Virus record (IMG/VR): IMGVR_UViG_3300025362_000004
Coordinates: 32,001-96,000 of that record
Reading direction: 5' to 3' (one strand)
Origin: a virus
Length of the DNA: 64,000 bases
Within the stretch, counting starts at the first letter, position 1; every line of letters begins with the position of its first letter. Under the pieces are notes generated by a model. The model did not search any database, was not told the DNA's origin, and worked only from the letters and a program-made list of their open reading frames with translations. Below are positions 2,894-33,851 of the stretch, piece after piece. A program made the translations under genes and the position numbers.

Positions 2894-3163
2894 ATGTTAG
2901 GACTAAATACGCCATTAACAGAGGAACAAAAAAACGAGGTTGAATATCAAACACACTTAGTATGTTTAAATTTAGTAAACACACAACGCAACTATTTAAT
3001 AATGCAAGCAAATGAGGAGTATTTCAACGTAATAGACGACTACGATTTCAAATTTGTAATACGCAATGATTTCAAATACTATGACGATATCAAATGGAAA
3101 TATGTAAACTTTAACAAAGTTAAAGCCTACATCGTAGAAACATTAACAGAGTTAAGAGCCTGA
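2894..3163 (+). CDS. Hypothetical early protein (ends in TGA inside the terminator hairpin)
   Basis: Cassette promoter, RBS and terminator. Confidence 0.8.
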   Translation: MLGLNTPLTEEQKNEVEYQTHLVCLNLVNTQRNYLIMQANEEYFNVIDDYDFKFVIRNDFKYYDDIKWKYVNFNKVKAYIVETLTELRA

Positions 3164-3259
3164 AAAAGGGCTCTTTTTTTATTAACGCAAGTGGGTTGTC
3201 TACCATAGACAACCTAAAAAACTTGCATTATTTCGGTGTATATGATATAATATAAGTAT

Positions 3260-3390
3260 AGAGATAAGGTAGTCAATACCTCATCTCTCCACCAAAACTT
3301 TATTAGGCAAACCCACACTAACACGTGGAACCGTTGAATAAGTAAACTCTCTCTAAAAAACCCTATTGTGGCGATAGGGTTTAGAGAATA
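3260..3390 (+). ncRNA. Putative small ncRNA cassette
   Basis: Cassette promoter but no RBS or ORF; hairpins at both ends. Confidence 0.5.
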
Positions 3391-3482
3391 TGCGCAAGGG
3401 GTTGTCTGCGGTAGACAACCTTTTTAATTTGACTTATTTCTTTATATATGGTATAATTACTATATAAGAAAGAGGTAATAAA

Positions 3483-3770
3483 ATGAAAAAAATAATAGTA
3501 TTAGTTGACGATAAAGAGAACTGTATTTTAGCGACGTTAGATTTAGAAAAGAGAAAAGTTGATGTAACACCAGTTAAAAGATTTAAAGAATTATCATTTT
3601 TAGGACAAGCAAGATTTCAAAATAAATTAGAAAGAGCACTTTTAGAAACAACCAGACTCAACGACGAAGAAAAAGAAAACGCAATCTCTAATTTAGTTTA
3701 TAAAAGATTTCTTGACGAGTCTCCAGAATTAGAAGAAATAATGGAATTAGTCGAATTAATGAAAGACTAA
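3483..3770 (+). CDS. Hypothetical early protein
   Basis: Cassette promoter, GAGG RBS and terminator. Confidence 0.85.
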   Translation: MKKIIVLVDDKENCILATLDLEKRKVDVTPVKRFKELSFLGQARFQNKLERALLETTRLNDEEKENAISNLVYKRFLDESPELEEIMELVELMKD

Positions 3771-3907
3771 TTAATCGAAAAAAGAAAGTAGTCCTCCTCC
3801 TCTACTTTCTTCTTTATTGTAAGTATTAGGTTGTCTACGGTAGACAACCTAAAAAACTTGCTATTATTGAGTTTATATGTTATAATATATATAAGAGGTG
3901 AGAGATT

Positions 3908-4147
3908 ATGTTAGTATTACAAAGAAAGCATTATATTATGAGTGAGATTTTAAACGGTGGGAATACCTTAAAAGTTATACCAAAAAATGGGCTTGACAAT
4001 TACAGAGTAGGTCAAACAGTTAGAGTTTTTCATGAAATTAACTCGCAGAAATACCGAGAAGGAAAAATCACAAAAGTAAGACAACACGCATTTGAGTTTG
4101 GTTTTAGTGTTGGAACAACTGAATTGCCGAGAGTTATTATTTTATAA
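3908..4147 (+). CDS. Hypothetical early protein
   Basis: Cassette promoter and RBS. Confidence 0.8.
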   Translation: MLVLQRKHYIMSEILNGGNTLKVIPKNGLDNYRVGQTVRVFHEINSQKYREGKITKVRQHAFEFGFSVGTTELPRVIIL

Positions 4148-4320
4148 ATTAAGACTTATAAGAGAAACAAATAGATAGGTCTGTGTTGAAGAAAAGGAAA
4201 CTTTGAAAAATCCTTTTCTTCTTTTATAATTCATGGTAGGTTGTCTGCCGTAGACAACCGAAAAGATTTGACATCATATCTAAATTATGATATAATATAA
4301 GTATAAAAGGGGTGAATTAA

Positions 4321-4575
4321 ATGGAATTTAAAACAGAGTTAAAAGTAAATATTCATTTTGAAAACAGAACAGTTTTTACAGATGAGGTAGTAAGGGATAG
4401 TATCACAGGCGAAGTTATCGCTGAATTAGTAAATGATATTGATATGGGAACTGCTACTACAGTAGAAAATGATATACTAAAAGATGGTTCTTGTATTTTA
4501 TCAGTAACAAAAGAAACAAGTGGCTTCAATGCTGAAACTGGGTTTTACGACTTAGATTTAACAATTGAAATGTAG
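4321..4575 (+). CDS. Acidic hypothetical early protein
   Basis: Cassette promoter and RBS. Confidence 0.85.
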   Translation: MEFKTELKVNIHFENRTVFTDEVVRDSITGEVIAELVNDIDMGTATTVENDILKDGSCILSVTKETSGFNAETGFYDLDLTIEM

Positions 4576-4742
4576 TTAAGGCTTATAGAATCTAAAATAG
4601 ATAGGCTTGTTTGGAAGAAAAGGAAACTTTGAAAACTCCTTTTCTTCCTTTATAAAATGATAGAGGTTGTCTGCAGTAGACAACCTTATTCGTTTGACTT
4701 AAAATAATATATATGGTATAATATATGTAAGAGGTGAGATGT

Positions 4743-5225
4743 ATGAAAAAGAAATTATATTTTGATATGGACGGTATTTTAGCCGATTTTGACAATGAGC
4801 CAAACGCTTTAACACGTTTTAAAAAAGAAAAAGGCTTTTTCGCAACACTACAACCAATAGAAGAAAATATTAAGGCTGTAAAAAAACTTATCGCAGAGGG
4901 TAAAAAAGTTTATATATTAAGTGTAAGTCCTAACAGACAAGCCGACACTGACAAAAAATCTTGGCTTAAGAAATATCTACCAGAAGTAAAAGAAAAGAAT
5001 ATATATATTATAAGGACAGGAACGCCAAAGAATAAAGCCGTAAAAGTAAAGAGAGCAATATTGTTTGACGATTACCGATTAAATGTTAGAAAATGGATTG
5101 ACGCTGGTGGCTACCTTGCTATAAAAATAACACAAAGAACAGATAAAAAACTCAAAGCCGAATATCAAGCAAGAACTTTAGAACAAAGTATTTCAAGATT
5201 AAAAATGTTTGGGGTGATACAATGA
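4743..5225 (+). CDS. HAD-family 5'(3')-deoxyribonucleotidase (NT5C-like)
   Basis: YFDMDGILADF, ILS, K..WL and LFDD motifs. Confidence 0.85.
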   Translation: MKKKLYFDMDGILADFDNEPNALTRFKKEKGFFATLQPIEENIKAVKKLIAEGKKVYILSVSPNRQADTDKKSWLKKYLPEVKEKNIYIIRTGTPKNKAVKVKRAILFDDYRLNVRKWIDAGGYLAIKITQRTDKKLKAEYQARTLEQSISRLKMFGVIQ

Positions 5226-5380
5226 AAACTATTTATATTGTGTCATGGGAAAGAAAACATGATATATTAAATGACGAAGAAATGGAAAAAATATTAAATG
5301 GTGGAGTAATAATAAAAGACGGTATAAGATATGTTTCTTTGTGGGGTTATATTGATATAAATATAGAGATTGAAAAATAA
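5222..5380 (+). CDS. Small hypothetical protein (ATGA overlap with the upstream gene)
   Basis: GGGGTGA RBS, ATG 5222, TAA 5378-5380. Confidence 0.65.
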   Translation: MKTIYIVSWERKHDILNDEEMEKILNGGVIIKDGIRYVSLWGYIDINIEIEK

Positions 5381-5520
5381 TCTCTTTTTCTTTCTTTTGA
5401 GTAGGTTGTCTGCGGTAGACAACCTAATTTATTTGACATTGTTTTCTTTCTATGGTATAATATATACATAAGATAAAGAAAGATATTACTAAACTTTATC
5501 AAAAAAAGGGGTAACATATT

Positions 5521-5781
5521 ATGGCTAAAGTAACAAAAAAAGTAACAGAGTTGAGCGATAAAGCGAAAGAAATTTTAGTGGTTTTGCAAGGTGCTGACAA
5601 GGGTTTGACACTACAAGAAATCACAAGCAAGGGCGTTGTAAAGCCTAATGGCTCACACTTAAAAGCACTTGAAAACAGAAATCTTGTTACAAGCGTTGAT
5701 GTTGAAATTATCGTGCCAACTACAAGAACAGTAAAATCTTATTCTGTTGTTGTGGCTGAAGAAGAAACACCAGCCGAGTAA
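5521..5781 (+). CDS. Winged-helix-like protein (paralog family A)
   Basis: LSDKAKEIL..L....LTLQEI...L.ALENRNLV...SY.V pattern. Confidence 0.7.
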   Translation: MAKVTKKVTELSDKAKEILVVLQGADKGLTLQEITSKGVVKPNGSHLKALENRNLVTSVDVEIIVPTTRTVKSYSVVVAEEETPAE

Positions 5782-5900
5782 AAAACTAAAGCGAGAAATC
5801 GCTTTTTTTTCTATTCGCAAGTGGTTGTCTGCGGTAGACAACCTAAATGACTTGACTTATTTTAGTATCTATGGTATAATATATATAAGAGGTGATAAAT

Positions 5901-6224
5901 ATGTTATTTAATAATGAGTATTATAATATTCTAAAAAGAGAAGAAAGAGAAATGAAACAAGAGGCTTTAATCGAAAGGTCAAAAGAATTTACTAAAATGG
6001 TTTTAAAAACCGAAGAAGCAATATTACATTTTAACTTTAGTAAAAAATTAAAAACTAAAATTAGTATAATAACTTATGTGTGGTTAGGTCTTGCTACTTT
6101 TAGAAAAGAGTTTAAAGAATATTTTTATAGAGAGTACAAAGAAATGGAAATTGATATAGTTAGTATAGAATATGACAAATCTGAATTCTGTCACGATTTC
6201 ATTCTCAAATTGAAAAAGAGATAA
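5901..6224 (+). CDS. Hypothetical early protein
   Basis: Cassette promoter and RBS. Confidence 0.8.
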   Translation: MLFNNEYYNILKREEREMKQEALIERSKEFTKMVLKTEEAILHFNFSKKLKTKISIITYVWLGLATFRKEFKEYFYREYKEMEIDIVSIEYDKSEFCHDFILKLKKR

Positions 6225-6324
6225 TCTCTCTTTTTTTATTGTAGTTAGGTTGTCTGCGGTAGACAACCTAAGTGACTTGACTTATTTTAGTATCTATGGT
6301 ATAATATATATAAGAGGTGAGAAT

Positions 6325-6786
6325 ATGAAAAACTTAATCAAAGTATTAAATGAAATTACAAACGAAAAAATTATTGTTTCGGCTCGTGGTGGTAGCCCCA
6401 TCATAAACACAAATCAGCGTAGCGTTATAAAGCAAAGAATAGAAAAAGCATTTTTAACAGACTTGCAAGAAATTTTTGCTGAAACCGATTTAGTCCATAT
6501 TATTGGTAGGGCTGAAAAAGGTATAATGTTAGCCATAGAGCATAATGATTTAGTAGATAATGCAAAAACTGAAGGCGAAATTGCTTTAGAATTTAATATC
6601 AAAGTAAGCAATTTAGATTTTGACACAGACACAGAAATTAGACTACACACAAAAGAACAAGCTAACAAAGAAATAGAAAAACAAGAAAAAGCACTTGCAA
6701 AGAAAAGAAAAATTGCAAGAGATAAAAAAGATAGAGCAGATAGAAAAAAAATAAAAGAACAAAAATTAGCCAAGTTAAACGGCTAG
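6325..6786 (+). CDS. Hypothetical protein with basic coiled-coil tail (paralog family B)
   Basis: EIALEFNIKVSNLDFD core shared with the ORFs at 13012 and 24521. Confidence 0.85.
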   Translation: MKNLIKVLNEITNEKIIVSARGGSPIINTNQRSVIKQRIEKAFLTDLQEIFAETDLVHIIGRAEKGIMLAIEHNDLVDNAKTEGEIALEFNIKVSNLDFDTDTEIRLHTKEQANKEIEKQEKALAKKRKIARDKKDRADRKKIKEQKLAKLNG

Positions 6787-6884
6787 TTTTTCTTTGACTT
6801 TCTAGAGGTTGTCTGCAGTAGACAACCTTCAATTTTTGACATTCTACTTAGTTTATGGTATAATATATATAAGAGGTGATAGAT

Positions 6885-7379
6885 ATGAAATTTAATGATG
6901 TAGTTGTAAAAATGGGCGAGTTAGTAAGTGGTTTTTTATCTGCTGTAAGTCCTGCGATATCTGTATCATTTGACAATTTTTCAAGTTTTGACCCTGAAGA
7001 AAATGTTATATATATAGGTCTATTGCCTATGACTGAAGAAAATCCCTATGACGATTTTCATAAAGGCTATTACAGAGCAAGTGGCTTTGATTATGAAAGT
7101 TATGGTATATCATTTGAAACTTTTACAATATTGCACGAGTTAGGACATATGGAAAGCAACCCAACAGAAAAAGAATACCAAGAATATTATAGATTAACAA
7201 ATATAATAAATAATTCAAATATGGAATTATCTACAAAAGCAAATAAATACTTTGCATTAGATTTAGAATATAAAGCAAATCAATGGGCTTTCAACTTCTT
7301 AAAAGATAATTTAGATATTGTTAGAGTGTTTGATAAAGCATTCAACCTCCTAAAAAGCGAATTACTCAATTGCGAGTAA
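6885..7379 (+). CDS. HExxH zinc-metallopeptidase-like protein (ImmA/IrrE-like)
   Basis: TILHELGH and E..AN.WA motifs. Confidence 0.7.
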   Translation: MKFNDVVVKMGELVSGFLSAVSPAISVSFDNFSSFDPEENVIYIGLLPMTEENPYDDFHKGYYRASGFDYESYGISFETFTILHELGHMESNPTEKEYQEYYRLTNIINNSNMELSTKANKYFALDLEYKANQWAFNFLKDNLDIVRVFDKAFNLLKSELLNCE

Positions 7380-7478
7380 TTTCTTTTTCTTCTGGGTTGG
7401 TTGTCTACGGCAGACAACCGCATTCGTTTGACTTAAGGCATTATATATGGTATAATATTTATATAAGAGGTGATAAAT

Positions 7479-8180
7479 ATGTTTTGTTCAAATACAACTA
7501 CAAGCGATTATATATTTTTAATAGTAACTCACGAGTGCGATAGGAATTGTGCTTTCTGCGTAGATAAGGACAGAGGAAAACAAGAATATATTACAATGGA
7601 AAATGCGGCGAAAGCAGTCCAATATTGTTTAGATAATGATATTAAAACGATTACTATATTAGGTGGCGAACCCACACTACACCCATTTATTGCATCAATA
7701 TGTTCTATGATAAGATATTATGGTATAAATATTGTAATGACTACAAATTACAGTAAACCTTCAGTTGTTGCTTACCTAGATAAATTTGTAAGTAGTTTTA
7801 ATATATCTTATTATGACCAAAAACACTTACCAAAGCAAAAAGATTTTAATGCCGACCTTACATTATCAAAGTTATTGTTTAAAGGTGGTATCGACACAAG
7901 AGAAAAACTAGACAACTTTATTGATAAACATCAAAATGATTTCAATGACTTAAAGTTCTCTACACTAACAGATATAAATAAGTTTACCCACGACCACAAA
8001 GACTTACTATTCTTAGACCAACTACCAATAGATAAAAAGGTAACTATTATGGGCGAAATTCAAGGTCATTATTATAGAGGTTATTTAATTAAGAGATTTG
8101 ATTTGAAAGCGACTGAAAATTATTATTGTCAAAGGTCAATGAAAATGCATACCAACGGGGAATTAAAAAGAGAGTGGTAA
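7479..8180 (+). CDS. Radical SAM protein
   Basis: CDRNCAFC (CX3CX2C), GGEPTL and TTN motifs. Confidence 0.92.
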   Translation: MFCSNTTTSDYIFLIVTHECDRNCAFCVDKDRGKQEYITMENAAKAVQYCLDNDIKTITILGGEPTLHPFIASICSMIRYYGINIVMTTNYSKPSVVAYLDKFVSSFNISYYDQKHLPKQKDFNADLTLSKLLFKGGIDTREKLDNFIDKHQNDFNDLKFSTLTDINKFTHDHKDLLFLDQLPIDKKVTIMGEIQGHYYRGYLIKRFDLKATENYYCQRSMKMHTNGELKREW

Positions 8181-8289
8181 CACTCTTTTATTTTAAATTG
8201 AGAAGGTTGTCTACGGCAGACAACCGCATTTGTTTGACTTAATAATAAATATATGGTATAATTAAGTAAAGAAAAAGGGGTATTAAGAA

Positions 8290-8853
8290 ATGGAATATTA
8301 CGGTAGAAATGATTTAAAGAGGGCTATCAAGAGATTTGAGAATGTCAAAAAGATAGCATTAAAATTAAAAGAGTTAGACATTCGTATAGGTCAACCGTTT
8401 AGGGTTAAACAGTTAGGCAATACGATTACTCATTCTGGGACTTTGTTTATGCAACTTGTAAACTCTGGAGTTCTAAAGGTTGTTGAAGTAAGGAAAGAGG
8501 TTTGCCCTTATATCAATAGAGGCGTTGAAACTGTTACAAGTTATAAGCGCATAACAGATGGCTGTATCATTAGCGCTGAAATGTATCACGATATGAATTG
8601 GCGCGGTAGAGATAAATATATTGGATGCCAAAAATCTTTTAAACCTGCTATGAGTAAATACAATGTATATGCAATTCAAGAGAATTGGCGTGGCATTCTT
8701 GTTAAAGAAATCAAAGAATTACAAGGTGCAGTTACGAACATTATTGCAAGAGAAACCAAATGGTTCGTAAACTCAGTTCAAGAATTAACTACTTTCTTTA
8801 AAAACGACGAATGGTCATTAAGAAGAGAAATAAGAAGAATTGAAAACTGCTAA
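8290..8853 (+). CDS. Hypothetical protein, possible winged helix with long wing
   Basis: QLVNSGVLKVVE...YNVY pattern. Confidence 0.75.
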   Translation: MEYYGRNDLKRAIKRFENVKKIALKLKELDIRIGQPFRVKQLGNTITHSGTLFMQLVNSGVLKVVEVRKEVCPYINRGVETVTSYKRITDGCIISAEMYHDMNWRGRDKYIGCQKSFKPAMSKYNVYAIQENWRGILVKEIKELQGAVTNIIARETKWFVNSVQELTTFFKNDEWSLRREIRRIENC

Positions 8854-8954
8854 AAGACCGCAAGGTCTTTTTTCCCGTGTAAGGTAGGTTGTCTGCCGTA
8901 GACAACCTAAAATATTTGACAAACTTAACTCTATATGGTATAATATATGTATAA

Positions 8955-9272
8955 GGTTGAGATAGAAACTCGTAAAAACGAAACATTGTTTAAACTCAAT
9001 TTGTAGTAGGAACCTTATAAAATGTGCTTATGTTAGCGAACCAGCGACTAACTAAAATTGCAAGTGTGAATGTGGAACTTGCAGGTATCCATTGCCTACA
9101 GCTATGGCGTAATTAGAAATTTTAACGACAAAAAAACCGTATACCTTGTTTGTGGTGCTTGTAACGATAACGAAAGTAACCGCCAAAGTCCTGTGGTAAA
9201 GGCAAAATAGGTTGAGAAATGTGGACTTTCTCATTAAATAAAGACTAATGCATAACTATTAGCCTATTTTTT
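8955..9272 (+). ncRNA. Putative ~310-nt structured ncRNA cassette
   Basis: Cassette promoter and terminator, no RBS-led ORF, several hairpins. Confidence 0.55.
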
Positions 9273-9371
9273 TTACGCAAGGAGTGGTTGTCTGCCACAG
9301 ACAACCGAATAATTTGACAATGTAAGCGTTTTATGATATAATATAGGTAGTTAAGAAAGGACTTGACAAAA

Positions 9372-10130
9372 ATGAGCGAAAAAGAAAAAATCTTAATTTT
9401 AGATACAGAGGTCAACGGGAAATTTGTTTATGATATTGGTTTTATTATCGCTGAGGAAAGCGAAAAGGGTTTTTATCACGCCGTAGAAAAGCATCAATTT
9501 TTAGTAGAACAGATATATTATAATCATAGATTATTTACTACTGATTATTACGCAAAGAAACGGAAAACTTATACAAAACTAATGAAAGGTAGAAATGCAA
9601 TATCTAAAAAGTTTGGTTATATAACACAAATAATCGCACACACCATCAAAAAACATGATATTAAAAAAGTTTATGCTTATAATAGTAATTATGATAAAAC
9701 AAGGTTTGCATTTACAAGTAATGATTTCAAAGTTATAAATCCGTTTGATAAAATAGAATGGCACGATATAATGGCTATCTCTAATCACTTTATACATTTA
9801 AGTGAAAAATATATCAATTTCGCTATTGAGAATGAGTATATCAATTCAAGTGGTTTTATTGAAACAACAGCCGAAACAACTTATCAATTTGTAGATAGCA
9901 ATATTGATTTTAAAGAGGAACACACCTCACTTGCTGACTGTGAAATAGAAATGGAAATATTAAACTATTGCATAGCAAAGGGATACAATAAAGAACAAGT
10001 TTACAAAACAAAAAATATCCCAAGTGATAAATTGCAAGTATTAACAGTAATTCACGAAAGCACCGAACATAAATTTGGTTATGTAAAAAGAAAAAATAGT
10101 TATTTAAAAAATCAAATTACTCTCACATAG
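9372..10130 (+). CDS. DEDDh 3'-5' exonuclease
   Basis: ILDTE, AYNSNYD and HTSLADC motifs. Confidence 0.88.
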   Translation: MSEKEKILILDTEVNGKFVYDIGFIIAEESEKGFYHAVEKHQFLVEQIYYNHRLFTTDYYAKKRKTYTKLMKGRNAISKKFGYITQIIAHTIKKHDIKKVYAYNSNYDKTRFAFTSNDFKVINPFDKIEWHDIMAISNHFIHLSEKYINFAIENEYINSSGFIETTAETTYQFVDSNIDFKEEHTSLADCEIEMEILNYCIAKGYNKEQVYKTKNIPSDKLQVLTVIHESTEHKFGYVKRKNSYLKNQITLT

Positions 10131-10240
10131 AGAGTTTTTTGCTTTTAATTTAATTAGGTTGTCTGCGGTAGACAACCGCATAAGTTTGACAAGTTTCTTT
10201 GTATATGGTATAATATAAGTATAGAAAAGGGGTAATAAAT

Positions 10241-10669
10241 ATGTTAAATGTAAATGTAGTAGACACTTACAGCGCGAGGGCGCTTGTCCGTGATTTTAGA
10301 ACTATCTATAGCAAGGTAGGGACATCAATTTTTAGGTCTAAAGAGGTTGGCGAACATTATCGCGCTGAATTAGAAAAGTTAAAAAGATACGGTCTTTGTA
10401 GAGTTGTAGAAACAAGACATCAACAAGTAGTAGATACAAGCCGTTGTTACAGAAACGATATGACTTTGGTAAATACAAGAAACCAAGATACAGTCGATGA
10501 AATTGAAAACGCCGTAGAGGGCGAAACTTACAAAGCCGTAAAAGGTAGAGTAATTAAAGGCGAGTTTTATACATACCAATTAACTTGTAATAGTATTAGT
10601 GACTTAATTGATGAAATCGAAAACCAATTATTCAAAGCCGGAAAAGATTTAAGAATGCATTTTTGTTAA
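10241..10669 (+). CDS. Hypothetical protein, related to the 8290 ORF
   Basis: LEKLKRYGLCRVVE...YTYQL pattern. Confidence 0.8.
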   Translation: MLNVNVVDTYSARALVRDFRTIYSKVGTSIFRSKEVGEHYRAELEKLKRYGLCRVVETRHQQVVDTSRCYRNDMTLVNTRNQDTVDEIENAVEGETYKAVKGRVIKGEFYTYQLTCNSISDLIDEIENQLFKAGKDLRMHFC

Positions 10670-10794
10670 AAGACCGAAAGGTCTTTTTTTGTTTTTGAGG
10701 TGGTTGTCTGCCGTAGACAACCTATTCAGAAGAAAATAAATTGACAAATGTTCGGCGATATGGTATAATCAGTATATAGAAAAGGGGTATTATT

Positions 10795-11085
10795 ATGAAA
10801 AAAATAAAAAAAGCATTAGACTTAATAGAAAATGAATTCTCAAAAATAATTGCAAAAATTACGGAAGATCTTGGGGTTGTAGTTTACTATTATGGCAAAT
10901 TAGAATTTCATCATGGGGTAGAATTTATCCAAAAAATTGAGTTTACAAGAAGTGACGAAGAATTCCTTTTTTACTTGACAGCAAATATAAAAGATATGAA
11001 ATTTAAAGCCGATATAAATAATATATTTCATCATAATTCATTTGAATTTGAAACTGTAAAGAGAATTGTAAAAGACTTTAACTAG
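10795..11085 (+). CDS. Hypothetical early protein
   Basis: Cassette promoter and RBS. Confidence 0.8.
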   Translation: MKKIKKALDLIENEFSKIIAKITEDLGVVVYYYGKLEFHHGVEFIQKIEFTRSDEEFLFYLTANIKDMKFKADINNIFHHNSFEFETVKRIVKDFN

Positions 11086-11188
11086 TCTTTTTTAAAAATT
11101 AAAGTGGTTGTCTGCCGTAGACAACCGCATTTGTTTGACTTAAAACGTTATGTATGATATAATATAAGTATAGAAAAGGGGTATCAAA

Positions 11189-11578
11189 ATGAAAAAAATG
11201 TTATTATTATTAGTAGTATTAGTTATTGGGTTCGGTTTTGTAGGTTGCGACCAAGCGAGTGTGGCCGCCGATAATATCAGCACAGGTGCAGACAATTTTG
11301 AAGTTCTTAGAAAAGTAGTTTTCTATAATGGGATTACAGACGAGTATATGTATGCAATTGAAGGCTATTGTTCTATCAAGCAAGACAACATTGATAATCA
11401 ATTAGAAGTAACTTGTAAAACGGGCGAAGACGCCTATGTAAAACACTATTTATATTTGAGTGATAATATCACATACATGGTTATTCAGTTAGAGACTGTC
11501 AATGTAGACACCTATCATTATAGGTTTATTTTAAGACCGAATGTTTTAATTCCTGATATTGAAGTCGATTTACCGTAG
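11189..11578 (+). CDS. Conserved phage lipoprotein
   Basis: Lipobox FVGC; ADNFEV.R.VVFYNGITD.Y..IEGYCSI motif. Confidence 0.85.
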   Translation: MKKMLLLLVVLVIGFGFVGCDQASVAADNISTGADNFEVLRKVVFYNGITDEYMYAIEGYCSIKQDNIDNQLEVTCKTGEDAYVKHYLYLSDNITYMVIQLETVNVDTYHYRFILRPNVLIPDIEVDLP

Positions 11579-11696
11579 TTAAATTAAGACCTTCGGGTCT
11601 TTTTTTTGTGAGTTGAATGGTTGTCTGCCGTAGACAACCGCATTTATTTGACTTAAAGCGTTGTGTATGGTATAATATATGTATGAGGTGATAGGT

Positions 11697-12110
11697 GTGG
11701 AAAAGTTAATATTTGAAGATAAAATGAGTGGTATTAGAGTTAATTTAAGTAAAGAATTAAGAGAAGAAATGAACGAGATAACAATGGGCTTAGATTATAT
11801 GACACCGAAAGACGTCCCTGATTTTGTTTTGTACGGTATTTGGTGGAGTTTTAAAGGTATGTTTTTAGAGATACTTTTTGAGAAAGACAGTACTAACGTA
11901 AAACTTAGAAAATCTGGTAAAACTGAAGAAATTTTAGTTAGTGAGTATTATTCTAAAAGTCTCTTTGACAGTTTAGTTGGTATGCTAGATAACGACGACC
12001 AAATAAAAGTTTGGCTATATACAAATCGCAAAGACATTTGGGAACAATTAGTTGATAAATTCGGTAGCGAAAAAAATGTGTTTGACGAATATATTAGATT
12101 TAACCATTAG
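11697..12110 (+). CDS. Hypothetical early protein
   Basis: Cassette promoter, GAGGTG RBS, GTG start. Confidence 0.75.
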   Translation: MEKLIFEDKMSGIRVNLSKELREEMNEITMGLDYMTPKDVPDFVLYGIWWSFKGMFLEILFEKDSTNVKLRKSGKTEEILVSEYYSKSLFDSLVGMLDNDDQIKVWLYTNRKDIWEQLVDKFGSEKNVFDEYIRFNH

Positions 12111-12222
12111 GTTAAATCTTTTTTATTTTAAGGTGGTTGTCTGCCGTAGACAACCTAAAATAATTGACAATTTAAAATATATATGATATAATATGTATAT
12201 AGAATTAAAAAGGAGAAATAAT

Positions 12223-12615
12223 ATGAAAAAGATTTATGCGTTCGGTTTCACCTACGATGATTTTGCGGACGGTGGTTTTAGTCCTAATTTTATTAGTTTT
12301 AGTAAAGAAGAATGTTTTAATAAATTAAAAAAAGAAAATAATGACTATGCAGTTGTGTCCTATGATTTTGAAAAAGATTTTGATTATGACGAAATTGAAA
12401 TAATTGCTATTGTTAGAGATGGCCAATTTACTATTTTAACAGATTTAGAAGAATTAAAAGAAAAAGCATTTCAGTTGGGTAAAAATTTAATATCAACTAT
12501 GAACATTATTAACGAACCAAATGAAGAACAATATACTTTCATAGATAATGAGTTTAAAAAAATGGGTTTACCAAATTTTGCTTCATTCCAAGTTTTTGAA
12601 AGGCTTTTTACATAA
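12223..12615 (+). CDS. Hypothetical early protein
   Basis: Cassette promoter and AGGAG RBS. Confidence 0.85.
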   Translation: MKKIYAFGFTYDDFADGGFSPNFISFSKEECFNKLKKENNDYAVVSYDFEKDFDYDEIEIIAIVRDGQFTILTDLEELKEKAFQLGKNLISTMNIINEPNEEQYTFIDNEFKKMGLPNFASFQVFERLFT

Positions 12616-12785
12616 GCCTTTTTTTTATAAATTGTATGGTTGTCTGCCGTAGACAACCAATTAGTTGAATGTTTAGGTTGTCTGCCAAAAATGAACGAAT
12701 AAAGGAATGAGTTTACTTTTCGTTCACTGTTCAGGAGAAAAATAAATATACGCCGACCGTTATTTACCATACCAAGAAAACCCCA

Positions 12786-14215: not shown

Positions 14216-14265
14216 TACCCCACCTGAATAAATAGAGTTGGGGAGTGCCGAACTCCCCGTTACAT

Positions 14266-14342
14266 GCTCCCATAGACAAAACGGTAAAGTCACTAGGCTT
14301 TCAACCTAGAATTTGCGGGTTCAAACCCCGTTGGGAACACCA
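14266..14342 (+). tRNA. tRNA-Glu(TTC)
   Basis: Cloverleaf, loop CTTTCAA, CCA end. Confidence 0.9.
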
Positions 14343-14346
14343 AATG

Positions 14347-14567: not shown

Positions 14568-14624
14568 ATAACTGGAATATAGATTTGACTTTATTAGTAA
14601 TCTATGATATAATTATAATATAAG

Positions 14625-17260: not shown

Positions 17261-18148
17261 TCACTCTTTATCCTCAATAATCTCCCATAATTTTATATAA
17301 TTCCAAGTAATTTGTAACTCTTTTTCAATATCATTTAATTCAACGTTTTTAAAAGCCTTCGTTGTATCTATTACATCAAGTCTTTTTAGCATGGCAATAG
17401 AATTTAGCTTCGGATTATTAGTATATCTGATACCAATAGGATTGCCATTATACTTACCTGCGGTTTTACGCTCTCCACGAAGGAAACCATAAAAGTTACC
17501 ACTATCAACTTCTAACTCTTGTGCGGCTTTGTAGGCTGTAAGATAAGTTCCTATTATTTGTTTACTATTCATATTATATACTTCCACTCCATTAGTAAAT
17601 TCAAGAGTTTGCATACGCCTACTTAAATGATTTTCTATATTTACTTTACTAAAATCTTTAACGAAAGCGAAAGTAAAACCATTTGCAATAAAATGACCAT
17701 CTTTTCTATGACATATATTTGAAATACTCGTTGGGGCGATATCCAACTTTTTACCCATAGCTGTTACACTATCTTCTTGAGAAATTATTTCAAATGTCCA
17801 AGCGTGTATTTGGTATACAGGCTTAGAATTTTTCTTGCTCAAACCACCCATACTTCGACCACCATTTGCTATATTATAACCTTTTGGTATCTTAGTGTCA
17901 AAATTAGAAATATAAAATATTTCCTTATCATCTAATTCGCTGTTCGGAATGTCGCCTTCGACTTCCTCAATTTTAAACTTATCAAAGCCATATTTTACCA
18001 TTGCAGATAAGATTGCTGAGTTATGCGAAATACTAGCAGATTTATGCCCGTATTTATAATTATTCCAACGATTTCCAATTGCTTGAGTTGTAAGCCCAAT
18101 ATAAATCTTATCATTTACTGAATTTGTTATTTTGTATATAAAACCCAT
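17261..18148 (-). CDS. GIY-YIG homing endonuclease with NUMOD1-like repeats
   Basis: FIYKITN...YIG...E......GYN motifs. Confidence 0.9.
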   Translation of the reverse strand: MGFIYKITNSVNDKIYIGLTTQAIGNRWNNYKYGHKSASISHNSAILSAMVKYGFDKFKIEEVEGDIPNSELDDKEIFYISNFDTKIPKGYNIANGGRSMGGLSKKNSKPVYQIHAWTFEIISQEDSVTAMGKKLDIAPTSISNICHRKDGHFIANGFTFAFVKDFSKVNIENHLSRRMQTLEFTNGVEVYNMNSKQIIGTYLTAYKAAQELEVDSGNFYGFLRGERKTAGKYNGNPIGIRYTNNPKLNSIAMLKRLDVIDTTKAFKNVELNDIEKELQITWNYIKLWEIIEDKE

Positions 18149-22472: not shown

Positions 22473-22473
22473 A

Positions 22474-22824: not shown

Positions 22825-22945
22825 ATTTTAATCCCTTTTTCTTATCCTTATAATATAATTATACCATAGGTTAAATAAAAAATCAAATCTAATATTCCAA
22901 TAAAAAAGGAAATGCGTAAACATTTCCTACTTAATTTTATTTTTA

Positions 22946-23587: not shown

Positions 23588-23829
23588 TTACTTCTCCTTT
23601 TATTTTTTTATTTTCTAATTCTACTGTCTCTACTGTTTCTACTTGCTCTTTTATTTGTTTTAATATATTTCTTCTACCTAAGGTTTGTTTAGCAAGTCTA
23701 ATTATTTCTTCTAATTCTTTATCACTATATAACCCGTAGTAAATAGTTTTATTCATATTTAAACCTACTTTCCTTACCTTATAATATAATTATATCATAA
23801 ACTAAACTAAAATTCAAATCTATATTCCA

Positions 23830-24024
23830 TTATTCATGTAATAATGTAAAAATAACTAAGAAAATTATCATTAGTATTGCAAATGCAATTGTTAAAACTA
23901 TTGGTAACCACCAAACCCACACCAATACGAATAAATTAACAAAAATAAATATGAACATTCCAGTTGTTGCAGAACTGAAAAACATTGTCGCTAATAGCGA
24001 TATTAATGCAAATAATTCTCTCAT
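23830..24024 (-). CDS. Small membrane protein
   Basis: Two hydrophobic helices. Confidence 0.7.
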   Translation of the reverse strand: MRELFALISLLATMFFSSATTGMFIFIFVNLFVLVWVWWLPIVLTIAFAILMIIFLVIFTLLHE

Positions 24025-24025
24025 A

Positions 24026-24283
24026 TTAATCTCCTAACATTGCGATTAACATTACAATAAAACCAAAAATAAATACTATTAATGGGACTATCGCAAAGAA
24101 AATCATTGCACTAAGAAATGTTAATGCCACTGGTATCCATAGCGGCGCAGTTACCCACCACCAAGACCAAGCAATAACTCCTACTAATTTTAGTATTAGG
24201 AATACTATAAATGTAGTGCCACACAATCCCATTCCACTTCTGCTATAAACAATTGTTTCTTTAAACTCTGTTTTATTCTCCAT
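24026..24283 (-). CDS. Membrane protein (LKL.GVI.WSWWWV.APLW family)
   Basis: Motif common in phage membrane proteins. Confidence 0.85.
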   Translation of the reverse strand: MENKTEFKETIVYSRSGMGLCGTTFIVFLILKLVGVIAWSWWWVTAPLWIPVALTFLSAMIFFAIVPLIVFIFGFIVMLIAMLGD

Positions 24284-24521
24284 CTTCTTCTCCTCGTAGC
24301 GAGTCCAAATTTCTTCTTGCTACTTTTACTCTAATCTTATCAACCATTTGGTCAATGATTTGATGTTGATATTTCTTTGGATAGCCTGTATATGTTTTAG
24401 TCACATAATGCAAGCAATCAATATAAATATCCCAATACTGTTCTTCACACATTTTTACACCATATTGAACTAAATCTAACTGTTCAATAAATTGTTTATC
24501 ATACTCATTCAACGGTATCAT
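24273..24521 (-). CDS. Hypothetical protein
   Basis: Translationally coupled ORF. Confidence 0.75.
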   Translation of the reverse strand: MIPLNEYDKQFIEQLDLVQYGVKMCEEQYWDIYIDCLHYVTKTYTGYPKKYQHQIIDQMVDKIRVKVARRNLDSLRGEEDGE

Positions 24522-25039
24522 TATTCTTCATCATCTTCTTTTTCTTCTGCTTCTTGTTCTTTTTGAAGATAGCGTTCTATTTTCTTCTCTTTAACTCTTT
24601 TCTTCTCTGCTCTAGCTTCTGCATCTCGTTTAATTTTTCTATCACGTTCTGCGGCTTTAGAGCGAGCTTTTTCTTCATCTTGCTCTTTCTTAAAAGCATA
24701 TTCTCTTTGTTGCTCTGACGCATCATAATCAAGATTTTTAATCTTTAATCCAATTTCTAATGAAATCATACCATTACATAAATCATCTTCATCTTTAGTT
24801 ATAACTTGTCTTTCAACTTTTTCATTATGGATTTCTAAAATCGGTCCATCCTTTGTAATGTAGACTTCAACACCCATTTCTTCTCCCAGTTCCTTTAAAC
24901 CTTCAAATAAGGCTTCAACTAATAAAGCCTTTTCTTGATTTCTTTCGGTTTGTTGAACTGATAAAACTCCTCGACTGGTTCCGACGGCTAAGTCTTTGTC
25001 TTTGAGTTCTTGCACTTTTGTAATAAATGCTTCAAACAT
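24521..25039 (-). CDS. Hypothetical protein (paralog family B)
   Basis: ISLEIGLKIKNLDYDA core and charged tail. Confidence 0.85.
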   Translation of the reverse strand: MFEAFITKVQELKDKDLAVGTSRGVLSVQQTERNQEKALLVEALFEGLKELGEEMGVEVYITKDGPILEIHNEKVERQVITKDEDDLCNGMISLEIGLKIKNLDYDASEQQREYAFKKEQDEEKARSKAAERDRKIKRDAEARAEKKRVKEKKIERYLQKEQEAEEKEDDEE

Positions 25040-25204
25040 CTTATCAATCTCCTTTTAAAGTATATCTTTCACCTTATATAATAATTATATCATAGATTAA
25101 GTAAAATTGCAAATCTAAATTTAAGAAATATTTCAATTTGGAATTTTTTTTGTTGAAAAAAGGACATTATTATCAATGTCCTTTTTTTGATAAAATCTTA
25201 ATAA

Positions 25205-25477
25205 TTACTCTGCGTCTTCACTATAAAGAGCGCCTGCTTCAGTTAGAGTATACACATTTCTTTTAGATTTGTGGTTGCATGTTGGACATACGAACTCTGT
25301 CATTTCTGCACTAATTAATTGACGTCTTTTTAGTTGAGTCATGTTCGCACTAGCGACTGCTTCTTCTAAACCTTCGTTTAATTCAGCAAGTGTAACTCCA
25401 CCCTCAACGTTTCTCATAGCATTTAATGCATCCCATGATTTTTCAGTTAAGTTAGTTAATTTAGCTTCTGTTGGCAT
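25205..25477 (-). CDS. Winged-helix-like protein with CPTC in the wing (paralog family A)
   Basis: LTEKSWDAL...VTLAEL...QLKRRQLI...VYTLT. Confidence 0.8.
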   Translation of the reverse strand: MPTEAKLTNLTEKSWDALNAMRNVEGGVTLAELNEGLEEAVASANMTQLKRRQLISAEMTEFVCPTCNHKSKRNVYTLTEAGALYSEDAE

Positions 25478-25601
25478 TTGTAGTTCCTCCTTTTTCTTTG
25501 TCGATAAAATAGTTTATTTTTATTTTATCTTTATATCTATATTATATCATAACTTTAACAAAAGTCAATTTTAAGATATAATAAAATAACCATTTTTTAG
25601 A

Positions 25602-31315: not shown

Positions 31316-31394
31316 TGGGATGTGGGCTAATTTGGTAAGCCACCTGCTTTGGGAGCAGGGCATCGTGAGAGTTCAAGTCTCTTCATCCCAACCA
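31316..31394 (+). tRNA. tRNA-Pro(TGG)
   Basis: Cloverleaf, loop TTTGGGA, CCA. Confidence 0.9.
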
Positions 31395-31395
31395 T

Positions 31396-31471
31396 GGTGA
31401 TATAGTAGAGTGGTTTAGAATGTCGGTTTGTCGAACCGAAGAACGGGGTTCAATTCCCCGTATCACCGCCA
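31396..31471 (+). tRNA. tRNA-Asp(GTC)
   Basis: Cloverleaf, loop TTGTCGA. Confidence 0.9.
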
Positions 31472-31484
31472 AAAAAATGAATAT

Positions 31485-31573
31485 GTTGTCTGTGGTGGAA
31501 TGGTAAACACGCTAGGTTGTGGCCCTAGTGCCGATAATTCGGTTTGCGAGTTCAAATCTCGTCAGTCAACCCA
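31485..31573 (+). tRNA. tRNA-His(GTG) with long variable arm
   Basis: G-1:C73, loop TTGTGGC, extra stem GCCGA/TCGGT. Confidence 0.85.
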
Positions 31574-31574
31574 T

Positions 31575-31652
31575 TCGAGTGTAGCTTATGTTTGGAAAAG
31601 CACCCACCTTATAAGTGGGAGAGCGTGGGTTCAAACCCCACCACTCGGACCA
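31575..31652 (+). tRNA. tRNA-Ile(TAT)
   Basis: Loop CTTATAA. Confidence 0.88.
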
Positions 31653-31656
31653 ATTT

Positions 31657-31730
31657 GGGGATATAGTATAATGGGATTACGGGTGGTTTGCAACCACTTA
31701 ATCGGGGTTCAACTCCCCGTATCTCCACCA
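31657..31730 (+). tRNA. tRNA-Ala(TGC)
   Basis: G3-U70, loop TTTGCAA. Confidence 0.92.
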
Positions 31731-31738
31731 AATGAAAT

Positions 31739-31813
31739 GGATTAGTAGCTCAGTGGTAGAGCAAGCGGCTGTTAACCGCTAGGTCGTAGGTTCAAGTCCT
31801 ACTTAGTCCGCCA
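31739..31813 (+). tRNA. tRNA-Asn(GTT)
   Basis: Loop CTGTTAA. Confidence 0.92.
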
Positions 31814-31814
31814 T

Positions 31815-31891
31815 GCCGATTTAGTGTTAATGGCTTAACATAAATGCCTTGTAAGCATAAGATATGGGTTCAACTCCTGTAATCGGCACCA
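31815..31891 (+). tRNA. tRNA-Thr(TGT)
   Basis: Loop CTTGTAA. Confidence 0.88.
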
Positions 31892-31892
31892 T

Positions 31893-31966
31893 AGTCCTAT
31901 GGTATAAAGGGAACACACCTGTTTTACAAGCAGGAATTCACGGTTCAAGTCCGTGTGGGACTACCA
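31893..31966 (+). tRNA. tRNA-Val(TAC)
   Basis: Loop TTTACAA. Confidence 0.88.
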
Positions 31967-32042
31967 AAAAAAAAAATAACCTAAAACAAAGAGTTTGAAG
32001 TTTAGATAGCCAGAATACTGTGTCTAAATTTGAGTTTGATAT

Positions 32043-32116
32043 GCACGTGTAGTTTAATGGTAGAACCTCTGCCTTCCAAGCAGACTATGACAGTTCAATT
32101 CTGTTCACGTGCTCCA
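32043..32116 (+). tRNA. tRNA-Gly(TCC)
   Basis: Loop CTTCCAA, U73. Confidence 0.92.
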
Positions 32117-32117
32117 T

Positions 32118-32193
32118 GATTGGGAAGCTCATTAGGTAGAGCGACGGACTGTTACTCCGCTGGTTAAGGGTTCAAATCCCTTCTCAATCGCCA
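32118..32193 (+). tRNA. tRNA-Asn(GTT)
   Basis: Loop CTGTTAC. Confidence 0.8.
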
Positions 32194-32276
32194 ATAAAAA
32201 TAACAGGATACGACTGAACACAGGCTTGATACAAGACAGTTAATCCTTATGGGTAATCAAGATAAACCCATTATAT

Positions 32277-32351
32277 TCCTCAGTAGCAAAATGGCTTTGC
32301 AGGCGGCTTTTAACCGTCGAGATGCAGGTTCAAATCCTGTCTGAGGAACCA
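32277..32351 (+). tRNA. tRNA-Lys(TTT)
   Basis: Loop CTTTTAA. Confidence 0.85.
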
Positions 32352-32354
32352 TAT

Positions 32355-32428
32355 CCTAGGGAGAATCGGATATTCAAGCAGGTCTCATAAGCCAGCCCTC
32401 GTAAGTTCAACTCTTGCCCCTAGAACCA
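32355..32428 (+). tRNA. Atypical tRNA-Met(CAT)
   Basis: Loop CTCATAA; weak D and anticodon stems. Confidence 0.55.
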
Positions 32429-32585
32429 AACAAATAAAGGAATACAATATATGCCGTCCTGCAAGACGATAAAAGGCATGCCGAGTAGCTTAACAGAAGT
32501 CTGGAATTTCGAAATAAGGATGAAAATAGAGCGCCCCTGTTTGAAGGGGAATGGTAGTGTTGAGAATACACTTTCGGTTATAAAT

Positions 32586-32660
32586 GGGATTATAGTGTTA
32601 ATGGGAGCACATCTGTGTTGCACGCAGATAGTCAGGGTTCAACCCCCTGTAGTTCTACCA
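32586..32660 (+). tRNA. tRNA-Ala(TGC)
   Basis: G3-U70, loop GTTGCAC. Confidence 0.8.
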
Positions 32661-32663
32661 AAT

Positions 32664-32739
32664 AGGAGTGTGGCCAAATGGCTAAGGCATGGGACTTTGA
32701 CTCCCAGAATGGCGGGTTCAATTCCCCCCTCTCCCACCA
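32664..32739 (+). tRNA. tRNA-Gln(TTG)
   Basis: Loop CTTTGAC. Confidence 0.85.
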
Positions 32740-32742
32740 AAT

Positions 32743-32818
32743 GCAAGCGTAGCATAATGGATAGTGCAACATCCTTCTAAGGTGTCCCGTGTGGGTTCAA
32801 CTCCCGCCGCTTGTGCCA
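32743..32818 (+). tRNA. tRNA-Arg(TCT)
   Basis: Loop CTTCTAA. Confidence 0.9.
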
Positions 32819-32819
32819 T

Positions 32820-32893
32820 GTGAGTATAGTTTAGTGGTAAAATAGGTGGTTTCCAACCATCGGTCGAGGGTTCAATCCCCTCTACTCACACCA
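32820..32893 (+). tRNA. tRNA-Gly(TCC)
   Basis: Loop TTTCCAA. Confidence 0.88.
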
Positions 32894-32897
32894 ATAT

Positions 32898-33144
32898 TTA
32901 ATTAAATGAATAGTTATTTAGACCGAAATTATATAAGTGCGCCGAATCGTAGTAGGCAACGAGTTTAGCGACTCAAGCACTTGGTTGAGAAAAGGACTTG
33001 TCCCGTTTAACGAAAATGCCGATAGGATAAGATATAGTTTTAGGAAAAGAGTAGCTCTCAATACCGAAGCAAGAAAACTTTAGAAAGGGGTCGCGACCTA
33101 TCTAATGGAAACCTGTAGGTCTGAATAATTATTCATTTAATTAA
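32898..33144 (+). ncRNA. ~245-nt structured ncRNA closed by a 27-bp helix
   Basis: 32898-32924 pairs with 33118-33144, with two G-U wobbles. Confidence 0.7.
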
Positions 33145-33161
33145 AAGGAAGAGGAGATAAA

Positions 33162-33851
33162 ATGCGAATTATATCAAACAAAAGAGACTATTACGATGGT
33201 TGGGCGACATATGATAAAACATATAAAACTAAAGTATGGGTTCGGAGACCACAAGAAATTGAATATAGCAAATATAAATTAGAAACTTTTACAGAAAATA
33301 GAGTTTGGATTAATAGTAGAGCTTTTCATATTGGTTATCTAATTATCGCTGGTATAGTTTATCCATATATCGAATACGAAAGTCTATGTGATGAAATTTG
33401 GTATAAAGGTAAGTGGATAAAAGAAAATAACAAAGAAGATAAATTCTTCTATGACTATGAAACTCTTATGAGTGAACATGGAGATTTCCTAAAAAAACAT
33501 TGTTGGAATGATGCTAGAGATATTAAGAATTTCTTTGAACAAGACCAATTCGATATGACAGAAATGTGTTTAGAATTAGATGCACCAATCATTTTAATTG
33601 AATTTAAAAAGTTTCCTTGGAGACTTGCAGACACAACAAAAAGAGTTATTACAATAAATCCTAATCTAAAAGAAATTAGTTTAAGTAAGGTATTTAGTTC
33701 ACCACAAATGTATCAAATATTAGACAGATTTGTTAGTAATGTTATGGTAGGAGATAAAACTCCAACATCAAAACAAACAGATATTGAAAAAGTTGAAGCA
33801 CATGGCTTTGACAAGAAAATTTCCTTTAGAAAGGGGAAACAAAAAAAATGA
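33162..33851 (+). CDS. Conserved phage hypothetical protein (MRIIS..RDYYD...AHGFDKK.SFR)
   Basis: RBS; ends in TGA as an ATGA overlap. Confidence 0.85.
   Translation: MRIISNKRDYYDGWATYDKTYKTKVWVRRPQEIEYSKYKLETFTENRVWINSRAFHIGYLIIAGIVYPYIEYESLCDEIWYKGKWIKENNKEDKFFYDYETLMSEHGDFLKKHCWNDARDIKNFFEQDQFDMTEMCLELDAPIILIEFKKFPWRLADTTKRVITINPNLKEISLSKVFSSPQMYQILDRFVSNVMVGDKTPTSKQTDIEKVEAHGFDKKISFRKGKQKK

Follow-up and report, generated by a model that had tools for sequence, protein, structure and literature searches.

Probable dual reading of TGA, as stop and as tryptophan, in a large tailed phage that encodes a tRNA with anticodon UCA

The DNA considered here is a window of 64,000 nucleotides, bases 32001-96000 of the virus record IMGVR_UViG_3300025362_000004, and our subject is the use that its genes make of the codon TGA. 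All coordinates are given in window numbering unless they are marked as genome coordinates. Our results make it likely that the phage reads TGA in two ways: about 25 genes carry TGA as a codon for tryptophan, and about 114 genes have no internal TGA, six of them ending in it. As part of the same explanation, which we judge as a whole, the agent of the second reading is most probably a phage-encoded tRNA with anticodon UCA, tRNA(UCA), and the window in all likelihood comes from the complete genome of a large tailed phage whose structural module is SPbeta-like. An initial annotation of the window had inferred that the early genes fit a host with the standard code and that a subset of genes needs a switch of code; this is supported by the codon regimes, the promoters and tRNA(UCA) described below.

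Two codon regimes and the meaning of TGA

Open reading frames (ORFs) were called with a codon log-odds model in which TGA is a sense codon, and the TGA positions were then located. The 140 ORF calls represent 139 genes, since two calls are pieces of one wrap-around gene, with one TGG counted twice. A per-gene count over the whole genome revealed two regimes: 26 of the 140 calls carry internal TGA (87 TGA to 47 TGG), and the remaining 114 have 230 TGG and lack internal TGA altogether. If the pooled TGA share of 0.239 applied to them, a run of 230 TGG without any TGA would have a probability of about 5e-28. Base composition does not explain the split, because out-of-frame TGA is similarly dense in both sets (22.6 per kb in the TGA-free ORFs and 20.0 in the TGA-rich ones). 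The largest TGA-rich block is contiguous: it starts at genome position 120,440, crosses the contig ends and stops at 32,665.

In the 114 ORFs, TGA is placed as a stop codon would be, because all seven of their TGA codons fall within the last 16 codons, an arrangement with a probability of about 8e-8 under uniform placement. The claim of the initial annotation that TGA behaves as a stop is thus correct in that TGA does act as one, but it does so rarely and is not the normal stop: it is the first stop of six of the 114 ORFs, five of which lie in the window, and TAA and TAG terminate the others. Read-through of the six would add 1 to 15 codons. Four of these stops had been named, at 3161, 5223, 33849 and, on the minus strand, 17261, and they are present exactly where they had been placed; a fifth, also in the window, had been overlooked (Table 1). 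The TGA at 3161-3163 forms part of a hairpin loop (AGAGCC-TGAAAAA-GGCTCT, with seven T after it), and read-through would cross this terminator as had been stated, since the next in-frame TAA or TAG lies beyond the hairpin at 3206-3208. The ATGA overlaps at 5223 and 33849 are real, with a purine-rich ribosome-binding site upstream of each: GGGGTG precedes the ATG at 5222, which opens a frame of 52 codons ending at about 5380, and AGGGGAAA precedes the ATG at 33848. The minus-strand stop at 17261 was likewise verified, its read-through adding nine codons.

For 114 of the 140 ORFs the standard code is therefore sufficient. This set includes the replication genes for GyrB, GyrA, an AAA_24 ATPase, DnaB, primase, RecJ and DNA polymerase III alpha (1290 amino acids, 14 TGG), as well as those for the UvrD helicase, ligase and DEDDh exonuclease, many small genes of window 1,100-31,100 and those in the tRNA region. 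The avoidance of sense TGA first described for 3161-33851 was borne out, as the 46 ORFs of that span hold 75 TGG and no internal TGA. The long genes said to use TGG only do so, with 6, 16 and 12 TGG and no TGA at 42400-44364, 53041-54927 and 60713-61801, respectively. The labels of two of them stand, the InlB-type repeat protein by a Flg_new match in the 628-residue product and the ligase by a match to DNA_ligase_A_M. The name TerD for the 654-residue product found no backing, as no Pfam family matches it at E <= 0.001.

The genes that carry TGA include those for virion proteins, among them the tape measure protein (1802 amino acids, 8 TGA), the portal (2), the terminase-like protein (4) and a Laminin_G_3 fibre (13). 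Others encode the thymidylate synthase ThyX, a split ribonucleotide reductase, thioredoxin, dUTPase, a RuvC-like resolvase and two small membrane proteins. The tape measure match to phrog_4211 (residues 30-1314, E 3e-46) and the portal match to phrog_2739 (residues 32-513, E 4e-54) span in-frame TGAs, as do the matches to Thy1, Ribonuc_red_lgC, dUTPase_2 and Thioredoxin. The TGA-bearing frames are real genes. We considered and rejected pseudogenes or frameshifts as the origin of the in-frame TGAs: there are 87 of them in 26 ORFs, they lie inside family matches, and homologues have Trp. Five genes encode GIY-YIG endonucleases (window 17261-18148, 34810-35643 and 41547-42230; genome 30076-31068 and 112865-113866), and only the one that adjoins the structural module has in-frame TGA, five in number; the other four have none.

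In code 4, which is used by the Mycoplasmatales and similar bacteria, TGA means tryptophan throughout and release factor 2 (RF2) has been lost. If the whole genome followed this code in a Mycoplasma-like host without RF2, the TGA-free genes would be recent imports and the apparent stops would be tryptophan codons near C-termini. The few codons added by read-through would probably be tolerated, relatives of this phage are often TGA-recoded, and one recoded relative sits on a contig binned with a metagenome-assembled genome (MAG) of a wall-less member of the Bacillota. We nevertheless consider this explanation improbable. Under a uniform code 4, TGA would be a sense codon in most genes and never a stop, and internal TGA was found only in 26 of 140 ORFs. 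That all 230 tryptophan codons of the other 114 ORFs are TGG, at 32% G+C, would call for so many independent imports as to be implausible, the more so as the recoded genes favour TGA over TGG. The confinement of seven TGA codons to the last 16 positions, the stop at 3161 ahead of a terminator and the two ATGA overlaps with their ribosome-binding sites also argue against it. Borges et al. (bioRxiv 10.1101/2021.08.26.457843) put the share of genes with in-frame TGA at about 90% in phages matched to a recoded host, much above the 26 of 140 found here.

The record is a single virus contig of 123,582 bases. Its first and last 153 bases are identical save for one letter, which leaves 123,429 unique bases, and a minus-strand frame of 923 codons continues in frame across the contig junction; the genome is therefore circularly permuted or terminally redundant. 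Its CheckV completeness is listed as 100, and its terminase is recorded from four contigs, which reach up to 123,692 bases. We give almost no credence to the idea that the contig is a chimera of a code-4 phage and a standard-code phage. The contiguity of the largest TGA-rich block would fit such a junction, but G+C varies little across the window (0.28-0.37, with 0.41 in a single RNA-rich 2-kb bin, 14001-16000), the TGA-bearing genes are scattered among TGA-free ones and tRNA(UCA) lies in the TGA-free part. The closure of the contig by the 153-nucleotide overlap with an intact frame across it, the four terminase contigs and the CheckV value likewise speak against a chimera.

The portal and a YonB-type putative capsid protein link the structural module to large siphoviruses of the Bacillota (Bacillus, Enterococcus, Lactococcus and Clostridioides phages, and SPbeta-like ones). 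Relatives of the terminase occur in MAG bins of Clostridia, Bacilli and others, although such binning does not establish a host. Parts of window 55000-59000 were found in 15 public runs, of which 14 are labelled salt lake metagenome and none is an RNA run; five of the 15 contain at least half of the words sampled from this interval. Contigs from four of these runs carry the tRNA(UCA) region without any difference. The record may itself derive from one of the runs, and all of them may stem from a single campaign; the identity shows that the sequence is reproducible without showing that it is widespread.

The terminase alignment bears on what TGA stands for. Two of the four terminase TGA sites are W in 118 of 119 and in 119 of 119 homologues. 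Because a W in homologous proteins could be circular if these had been translated with code 4, codons were read from the DNA of related loci, 72 of which were obtained through this alignment. Relatives without in-frame TGA carry TGG at the terminase TGA sites of this phage, W310 is TGG in this phage and TGA in close relatives, and the terminase clade mixes recoded and unrecoded members. When the TGA sites of this phage in genes near the terminase were compared over 631 aligned cells, the partners were TGG (230), TGA (82), Tyr (76) and Phe (62). In the dUTPase, one TGA aligns with a W of the solved staphylococcal phage enzyme and another with an F. On the evidence of these aligned loci, in-frame TGA is read as tryptophan.

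The same data bear on a reading of TGA as another residue, namely glycine (code 25), selenocysteine or cysteine, for which we see next to no likelihood. The tRNA is labelled 'SeC' by ARAGORN, but only because of its anticodon, and 12 relatives have Cys at one terminase TGA site. Glycine, which code 25 would assign to TGA, is outside the ten commonest partners, TGG is the commonest, and two terminase sites are invariant W. Selenocysteine tRNAs have a long-arm form, and the tRNA(UCA) is drawn with a seven-pair acceptor stem and a short variable region.

A separate observation from the 72 loci concerns TAG. Two distant terminase relatives, L056 and L057, have TAG in the otherwise invariant Trp310 column, and each has four in-frame TAG and no TGG, so that TAG in these loci may be read as Trp rather than Gln.

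The tRNA(UCA) and a proposed order of expression

The initial annotation had not listed tRNA(UCA), the candidate agent of the switch. The Rfam tRNA model matches 56868-56942 at 43.5 bits, with the anticodon loop CUUCAAA. With default settings ARAGORN reports 39 tRNAs and a transfer-messenger RNA (tmRNA), with Trp represented only by CCA; tRNA(UCA) is missed and is found with relaxed thresholds (-ps). The acceptor stem of tRNA(UCA) (G1.U72, G5-C68, discriminator G73) differs from its counterpart in the phage tRNA-Trp(CCA) only by a swapped 2-71 pair, and by the identity rules for charging by tryptophanyl-tRNA synthetase (TrpRS) this likeness would fit charging by that enzyme. Neither a release-factor domain nor a class-Ib synthetase domain was found in the six frames of the genome, and the phage therefore brings only tRNA(s). 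The leader between the tRNA and its promoter folds at -45 kcal/mol (z -4.33, with 0 of 200 shuffles as good), and no Rfam family, ribozymes included, matches it at E <= 5. Directly 3' of tRNA(UCA) stand two TGA-bearing genes for hydrophobic proteins, neither of which has a Pfam or PHROGs family.

Upstream of this unit we noticed a cyclic di-GMP-I riboswitch aptamer (55009-55083, 49.1 bits), which has a promoter upstream, at 54972, and is followed by a four-gene unit (55114-56643). This four-gene unit ends 35 nucleotides before the promoter of the suppressor tRNA.

Among the relatives, the contig G004 (127.8 kb) has internal TGA in 37 of 152 ORFs and also a tRNA(UCA); it is a distant relative (terminase 29-39% identical). 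Of five recoded or related contigs, it is the only one with tRNAs. Both tRNA(UCA) genes compared (two of two) have an anticodon stem of three pairs, with covariation at 28-42 and 29-41 (Table 1), and the tRNA-Trp(CCA) of each of the two phages has a mismatch at 27.43. An association of recoding with such an 'unpinned' tRNA-Trp(CCA) was considered and found no support as a general rule: this phage and G004 agree with it, and the unrecoded G007 (133.8 kb) has a paired stem, but the stem of the recoded G010 is fully paired. G010 (115.7 kb, the contig of locus L080) has 75 internal TGA in 29 of 108 ORFs, including the UvrD-type helicase, which is not recoded in this phage; the choice of recoded genes thus varies by relative.

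Other searches for relatives gave little. An exact 20-mer of tRNA(UCA) had no match in the viral contig collection, and a looser pattern had one, in an unrelated G+C-rich contig without an Rfam match, which we take to be chance. No tRNA(UCA) was present in six helicase loci, a single-sequence scan of viral contigs with the portal found no relative, and the tail-region ORF 17556-18368 of L001 had no tblastn match in phage records.

The distribution of promoter motifs parallels the codon regimes. The plus-strand early block at 2173-12638, whose genes are all without internal TGA, contains 22 copies (up to 3 mismatches) of the palindrome GGTTGTCTGCnGTAGACAACC, and in most of these units TTGAC(A/T), 17 bases and TGnTATAAT follow, which is a near-consensus promoter of the sigma-A type. 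Across the genome, TTGACA-16..18-TATAAT with at most one mismatch has 42 matches. The early block and the minus-strand block 16,000-25,600 are rich in them, and further matches precede the tRNA array, the cyclic di-GMP riboswitch and the suppressor tRNA; the structural module has none of the 42 on its coding strand. As judged from these motifs, the pattern fits transcription of the TGA-free genes by the host polymerase and another mode for the virion genes.

We therefore propose the following course of events. The host, which would use the standard code and have RF2, would express the TGA-free genes at once with its own RNA polymerase and ribosomes. The suppressor tRNA would be transcribed from its own consensus promoter, be charged by the host TrpRS and build up. 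Only at that point would complete products of the TGA-bearing genes become possible, with RF2 as a competitor. Those few early genes whose stop is TGA would gain 1 to 15 residues, and at 3161 the ribosome would reach the end of the terminated transcript.

Several observations weigh against this account. The division into early and late genes is not clean: the dUTPase gene, with three TGA, stands among TGA-free replication genes, and nucleotide-metabolism genes are recoded. 'Early versus late' is too simple a description, and the two labels themselves derive from promoter motifs and gene function. Ten ORFs of the structural module hold 12 TGG and no TGA, against a TGA share of 0.57 in the module, and the YonB-type putative major capsid protein is one of them; very abundant proteins may avoid a codon for which a release factor competes. 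The anticodon stem of tRNA(UCA), whose function is predicted from its sequence, has only three Watson-Crick pairs, with U27.U43 and C31.C39 mismatches. Because its promoter resembles the early-gene consensus, the suppressor would itself be made early, so that accumulation or the leader would have to account for any delay. The recoded G010 has no tRNA(UCA) detectable by ARAGORN -ps, only a tRNA-Trp(CCA) with a fully paired stem, so that a phage tRNA(UCA) may not be the only route. Lastly, the recoded relative on the contig binned with the wall-less Bacillota MAG is a distant one, and a search of the literature gave no usable account of the genetic code of that lineage.

A related question is whether the pattern has been selected as a timer. 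It is possible, though we think it rather unlikely, that the dual pattern is real and dependent on the suppressor but is a passive footprint of the order of expression, with no timer role. The recoded genes are a mixed group (virion, nucleotide metabolism, resolvase and one homing endonuclease) rather than a lysis cassette, TGA and TGG swap freely among close relatives at the same Trp sites, and relatives differ in the genes that are recoded. The TGA-free capsid candidate and the nine other structural-module ORFs without TGA point instead to selection on TGA use, perhaps for yield and not for timing; nothing in the present data separates a passive footprint from a selected timer.

With regard to mechanism, we suggest only tentatively that the switch rests on the unusual three-pair design of the tRNA together with a dedicated promoter-leader control unit. 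An open nine-base loop in the tRNA may favour decoding of UGA against RF2, an idea that we hold as doubtful as the control unit with which it is joined, and the leader, in its predicted role, could gate the time of the code change. The three-pair stem would also account for the failure of standard tRNA finders to detect a suppressor in most phages with recoded TGA. Two things are possibly new, the anticodon stem of three pairs in the suppressor and the promoter-leader unit that belongs to it.

Neighbouring features, further RNAs and consequences

The features discussed are collected in Table 1. The ribonucleotide reductase is interrupted directly after NPCGE, and its frame resumes with QPL...GSCNLGSINL. 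The insert (62861-63187, about 330 nucleotides) contains no ORF and has no Rfam family at E <= 1; it looks like an intron, probably of group I type. No lysis cassette could be identified in this phage.

Table 1. Features of the window that bear on the use of TGA, with the tRNA(UCA) of G004 for comparison
Feature	Position	Strand	Remarks
ThyX thymidylate synthase	1..665	+	starts 54 nucleotides before the window; TGA 270-272 and 564-566 inside Thy1 domain
Early ORF	2894..3163	+	first stop TGA at 3161-3163, within loop of terminator-like hairpin at about 3152-3185
Early ORF	4734..5225	+	TGA stop 5223-5225, overlapped by ATG at 5222
GIY-YIG endonuclease gene	17261..18148	-	first stop TGA; nine further codons, then TAG
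tRNA array	31316..47614	+	38 of the 39 ARAGORN default tRNA calls, and tmRNA
ORF	33162..33851	+	TGA stop 33849-33851, overlapped by ATG at 33848
tRNA-Trp(CCA)	36738-36812	+	anticodon stem with A27.C43 mismatch
ORF, fifth in window with TGA as first stop	40479..40640	+	absent from initial annotation; read-through adds 10 codons
654-residue protein	42400..44364	+	6 TGG, 0 TGA
628-residue protein	53041..54927	+	Flg_new (Listeria-Bacteroides) repeats; 16 TGG, 0 TGA
Promoter	56678..56706	+	perfect TTGACA-17-TATAAT, 160 nucleotides upstream of tRNA(UCA)
Leader, 155 nucleotides	56713..56867	+	between promoter and tRNA(UCA); U-rich tract at end
tRNA(UCA), this phage	56868-56945	+	reads UGA; CCA encoded after discriminator; lies in TGA-free part; 27.43 U.U mismatch, 28-42 C-G, 29-41 G-C, 30-40 G-C, 31.39 C.C mismatch
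tRNA(UCA), G004			27.43 G.A mismatch, 28-42 G-C, 29-41 A-U, 30-40 G-C, 31.39 C.C mismatch
169-residue protein	56979..57488	+	N-terminal hydrophobic segment; TGA is codon 4
133-residue hydrophobic protein	57481..57882	+	HEYGH motif; five in-frame TGA, four internal and one near end
UvrD-type helicase and ATP-dependent DNA ligase	59431..61801	+	1 TGG and 12 TGG; both 0 TGA
Ribonucleotide reductase, first half	61816..62877	+	ATP-cone and barrel positions 1-216; 3 internal TGA
Ribonucleotide reductase, second half	63196..64000	+	continues to 64329 beyond window; barrel 217-522; 2 internal TGA

With relaxed thresholds ARAGORN also reports long-arm tRNA-Leu genes at 36855-36943 and 47617-47709, which exactly fill gaps of the tRNA array, so that the array may exceed the default count of 39. 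A weak 'tRNA-Pyl(cta)' at 35751-35830 from the same relaxed search was not counted, as the Rfam tRNA model has no match in that interval at E <= 1.

Other RNAs were noticed in the window. A GOLLD RNA (Rfam RF02032) has a full-length match at 50645-51156, within the ORF-free stretch 49284-51299, with 150.4 bits, at the gathering score. The full tmRNA lies at 45588-45979 (94.2 bits), and ARAGORN predicts for it the tag SPEYRIRLLTNTKW, which we take to be unusual. An 82-nucleotide RNA at 14486-14567 resembles the tmRNA model in its tRNA-like ends alone (65.1 bits), the messenger part being absent. It stands in an ORF-less stretch of 2.1 kb (14343-16469) with raised G+C, in which the other Rfam matches are all below gathering score and which may hold further RNA genes. 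Speculatively, ribosomes that pass a TGA stop and reach the end of a transcript could be rescued by a phage tmRNA.

The mixed reading has practical consequences for annotation. Code 11 breaks about 25 genes, including those for tape measure protein, portal, terminase, ribonucleotide reductase and ThyX, and code 4 extends six early genes and adds spurious frames; only a mixed reading gives the right proteome. With neither a release factor nor a synthetase of its own, only the tRNA, the phage would also offer a simple system in which to study the competition between a tRNA and host RF2.

Comparison with known systems

Reassignment of TGA in this phage resembles code 4 in that TGA means tryptophan through a tRNA(UCA) that stands beside a tRNA-Trp(CCA), and in the preference for TGA over TGG (87 to 47) in the genes that use it. 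It differs from code 4 in that only 26 of 140 ORFs use sense TGA and six ORFs end in it, and the reassignment is thus partial and viral.

The closest parallel is with the TGA-recoded phages of Borges et al., which are predicted there to infect Firmicutes and Bacteroidetes with the standard code. In that preprint, structural and lysis genes are recoded and replication genes follow the standard code; in-frame TGA occurs in about 90% of genes on recoded hosts and in 26-71% on standard-code hosts. The present phage shares the in-frame TGA in structural genes, the standard-code replication genes, the phage suppressor tRNA, the scarcity of TGA stops (Borges et al. report 4 TGA-ended genes of 146 in a standard-code relative of their Agate lineage), the low G+C and the occurrence of recoded and unrecoded members in one terminase clade. 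Its 123.4 kb of unique sequence is close to the roughly 127 kb of the TGA-recoded Agate lineage, a likeness of size and recoding pattern only. It differs from the phages of that survey in having several recoded nucleotide-metabolism genes, and it carries no gene for release factor 1 or TrpRS, unlike two Jade phages. No lysis cassette to which the lysis-timer argument of Borges et al. could be applied was identified in this phage. Their survey covered gut samples, and the present DNA is found in runs labelled salt lake metagenome. Multiple codes arranged in blocks have also been described for phages in the Mgcod preprint (10.1101/2022.06.29.495998).

Suppressor tRNAs were found in only 35% of the TGA-recoded genomes of Borges et al., and odd tRNA structures were suggested there to hide the rest. 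The shape of tRNA(UCA) is a concrete lead in the search for these 'missing' suppressors. A tRNA-Trp with a four-pair, 'unpinned' anticodon stem promotes UGA read-through according to a recent article (Nucleic Acids Res 2026, PMC13092985), which deals with bacterial and eukaryotic CCA tRNAs and in whose main text the word 'phage' is absent. The tRNA-Trp(CCA) of this phage and both Trp-type tRNAs of G004 are likewise mismatched at 27.43. In contrast to that work, the tRNA here is a cognate UCA tRNA that is unpaired at both ends of the stem, which leaves three pairs, and the CCA tRNA is only weakly linked to recoding, since that of G010 is fully paired.

Structured RNAs next to phage suppressor tRNAs are known from the theta (HDV-like, hepatitis delta virus-like) ribozymes, which are described as processing tRNA 3' ends (Nat Commun 2024, PMC10879173). 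Here too a structured RNA adjoins the suppressor tRNA; it differs in lying upstream, between promoter and tRNA, and in lacking an Rfam ribozyme match at E <= 5. Taken together, the case matches the partial-recoding kind in every feature tested, and the phenomenon that it exemplifies has already been described.

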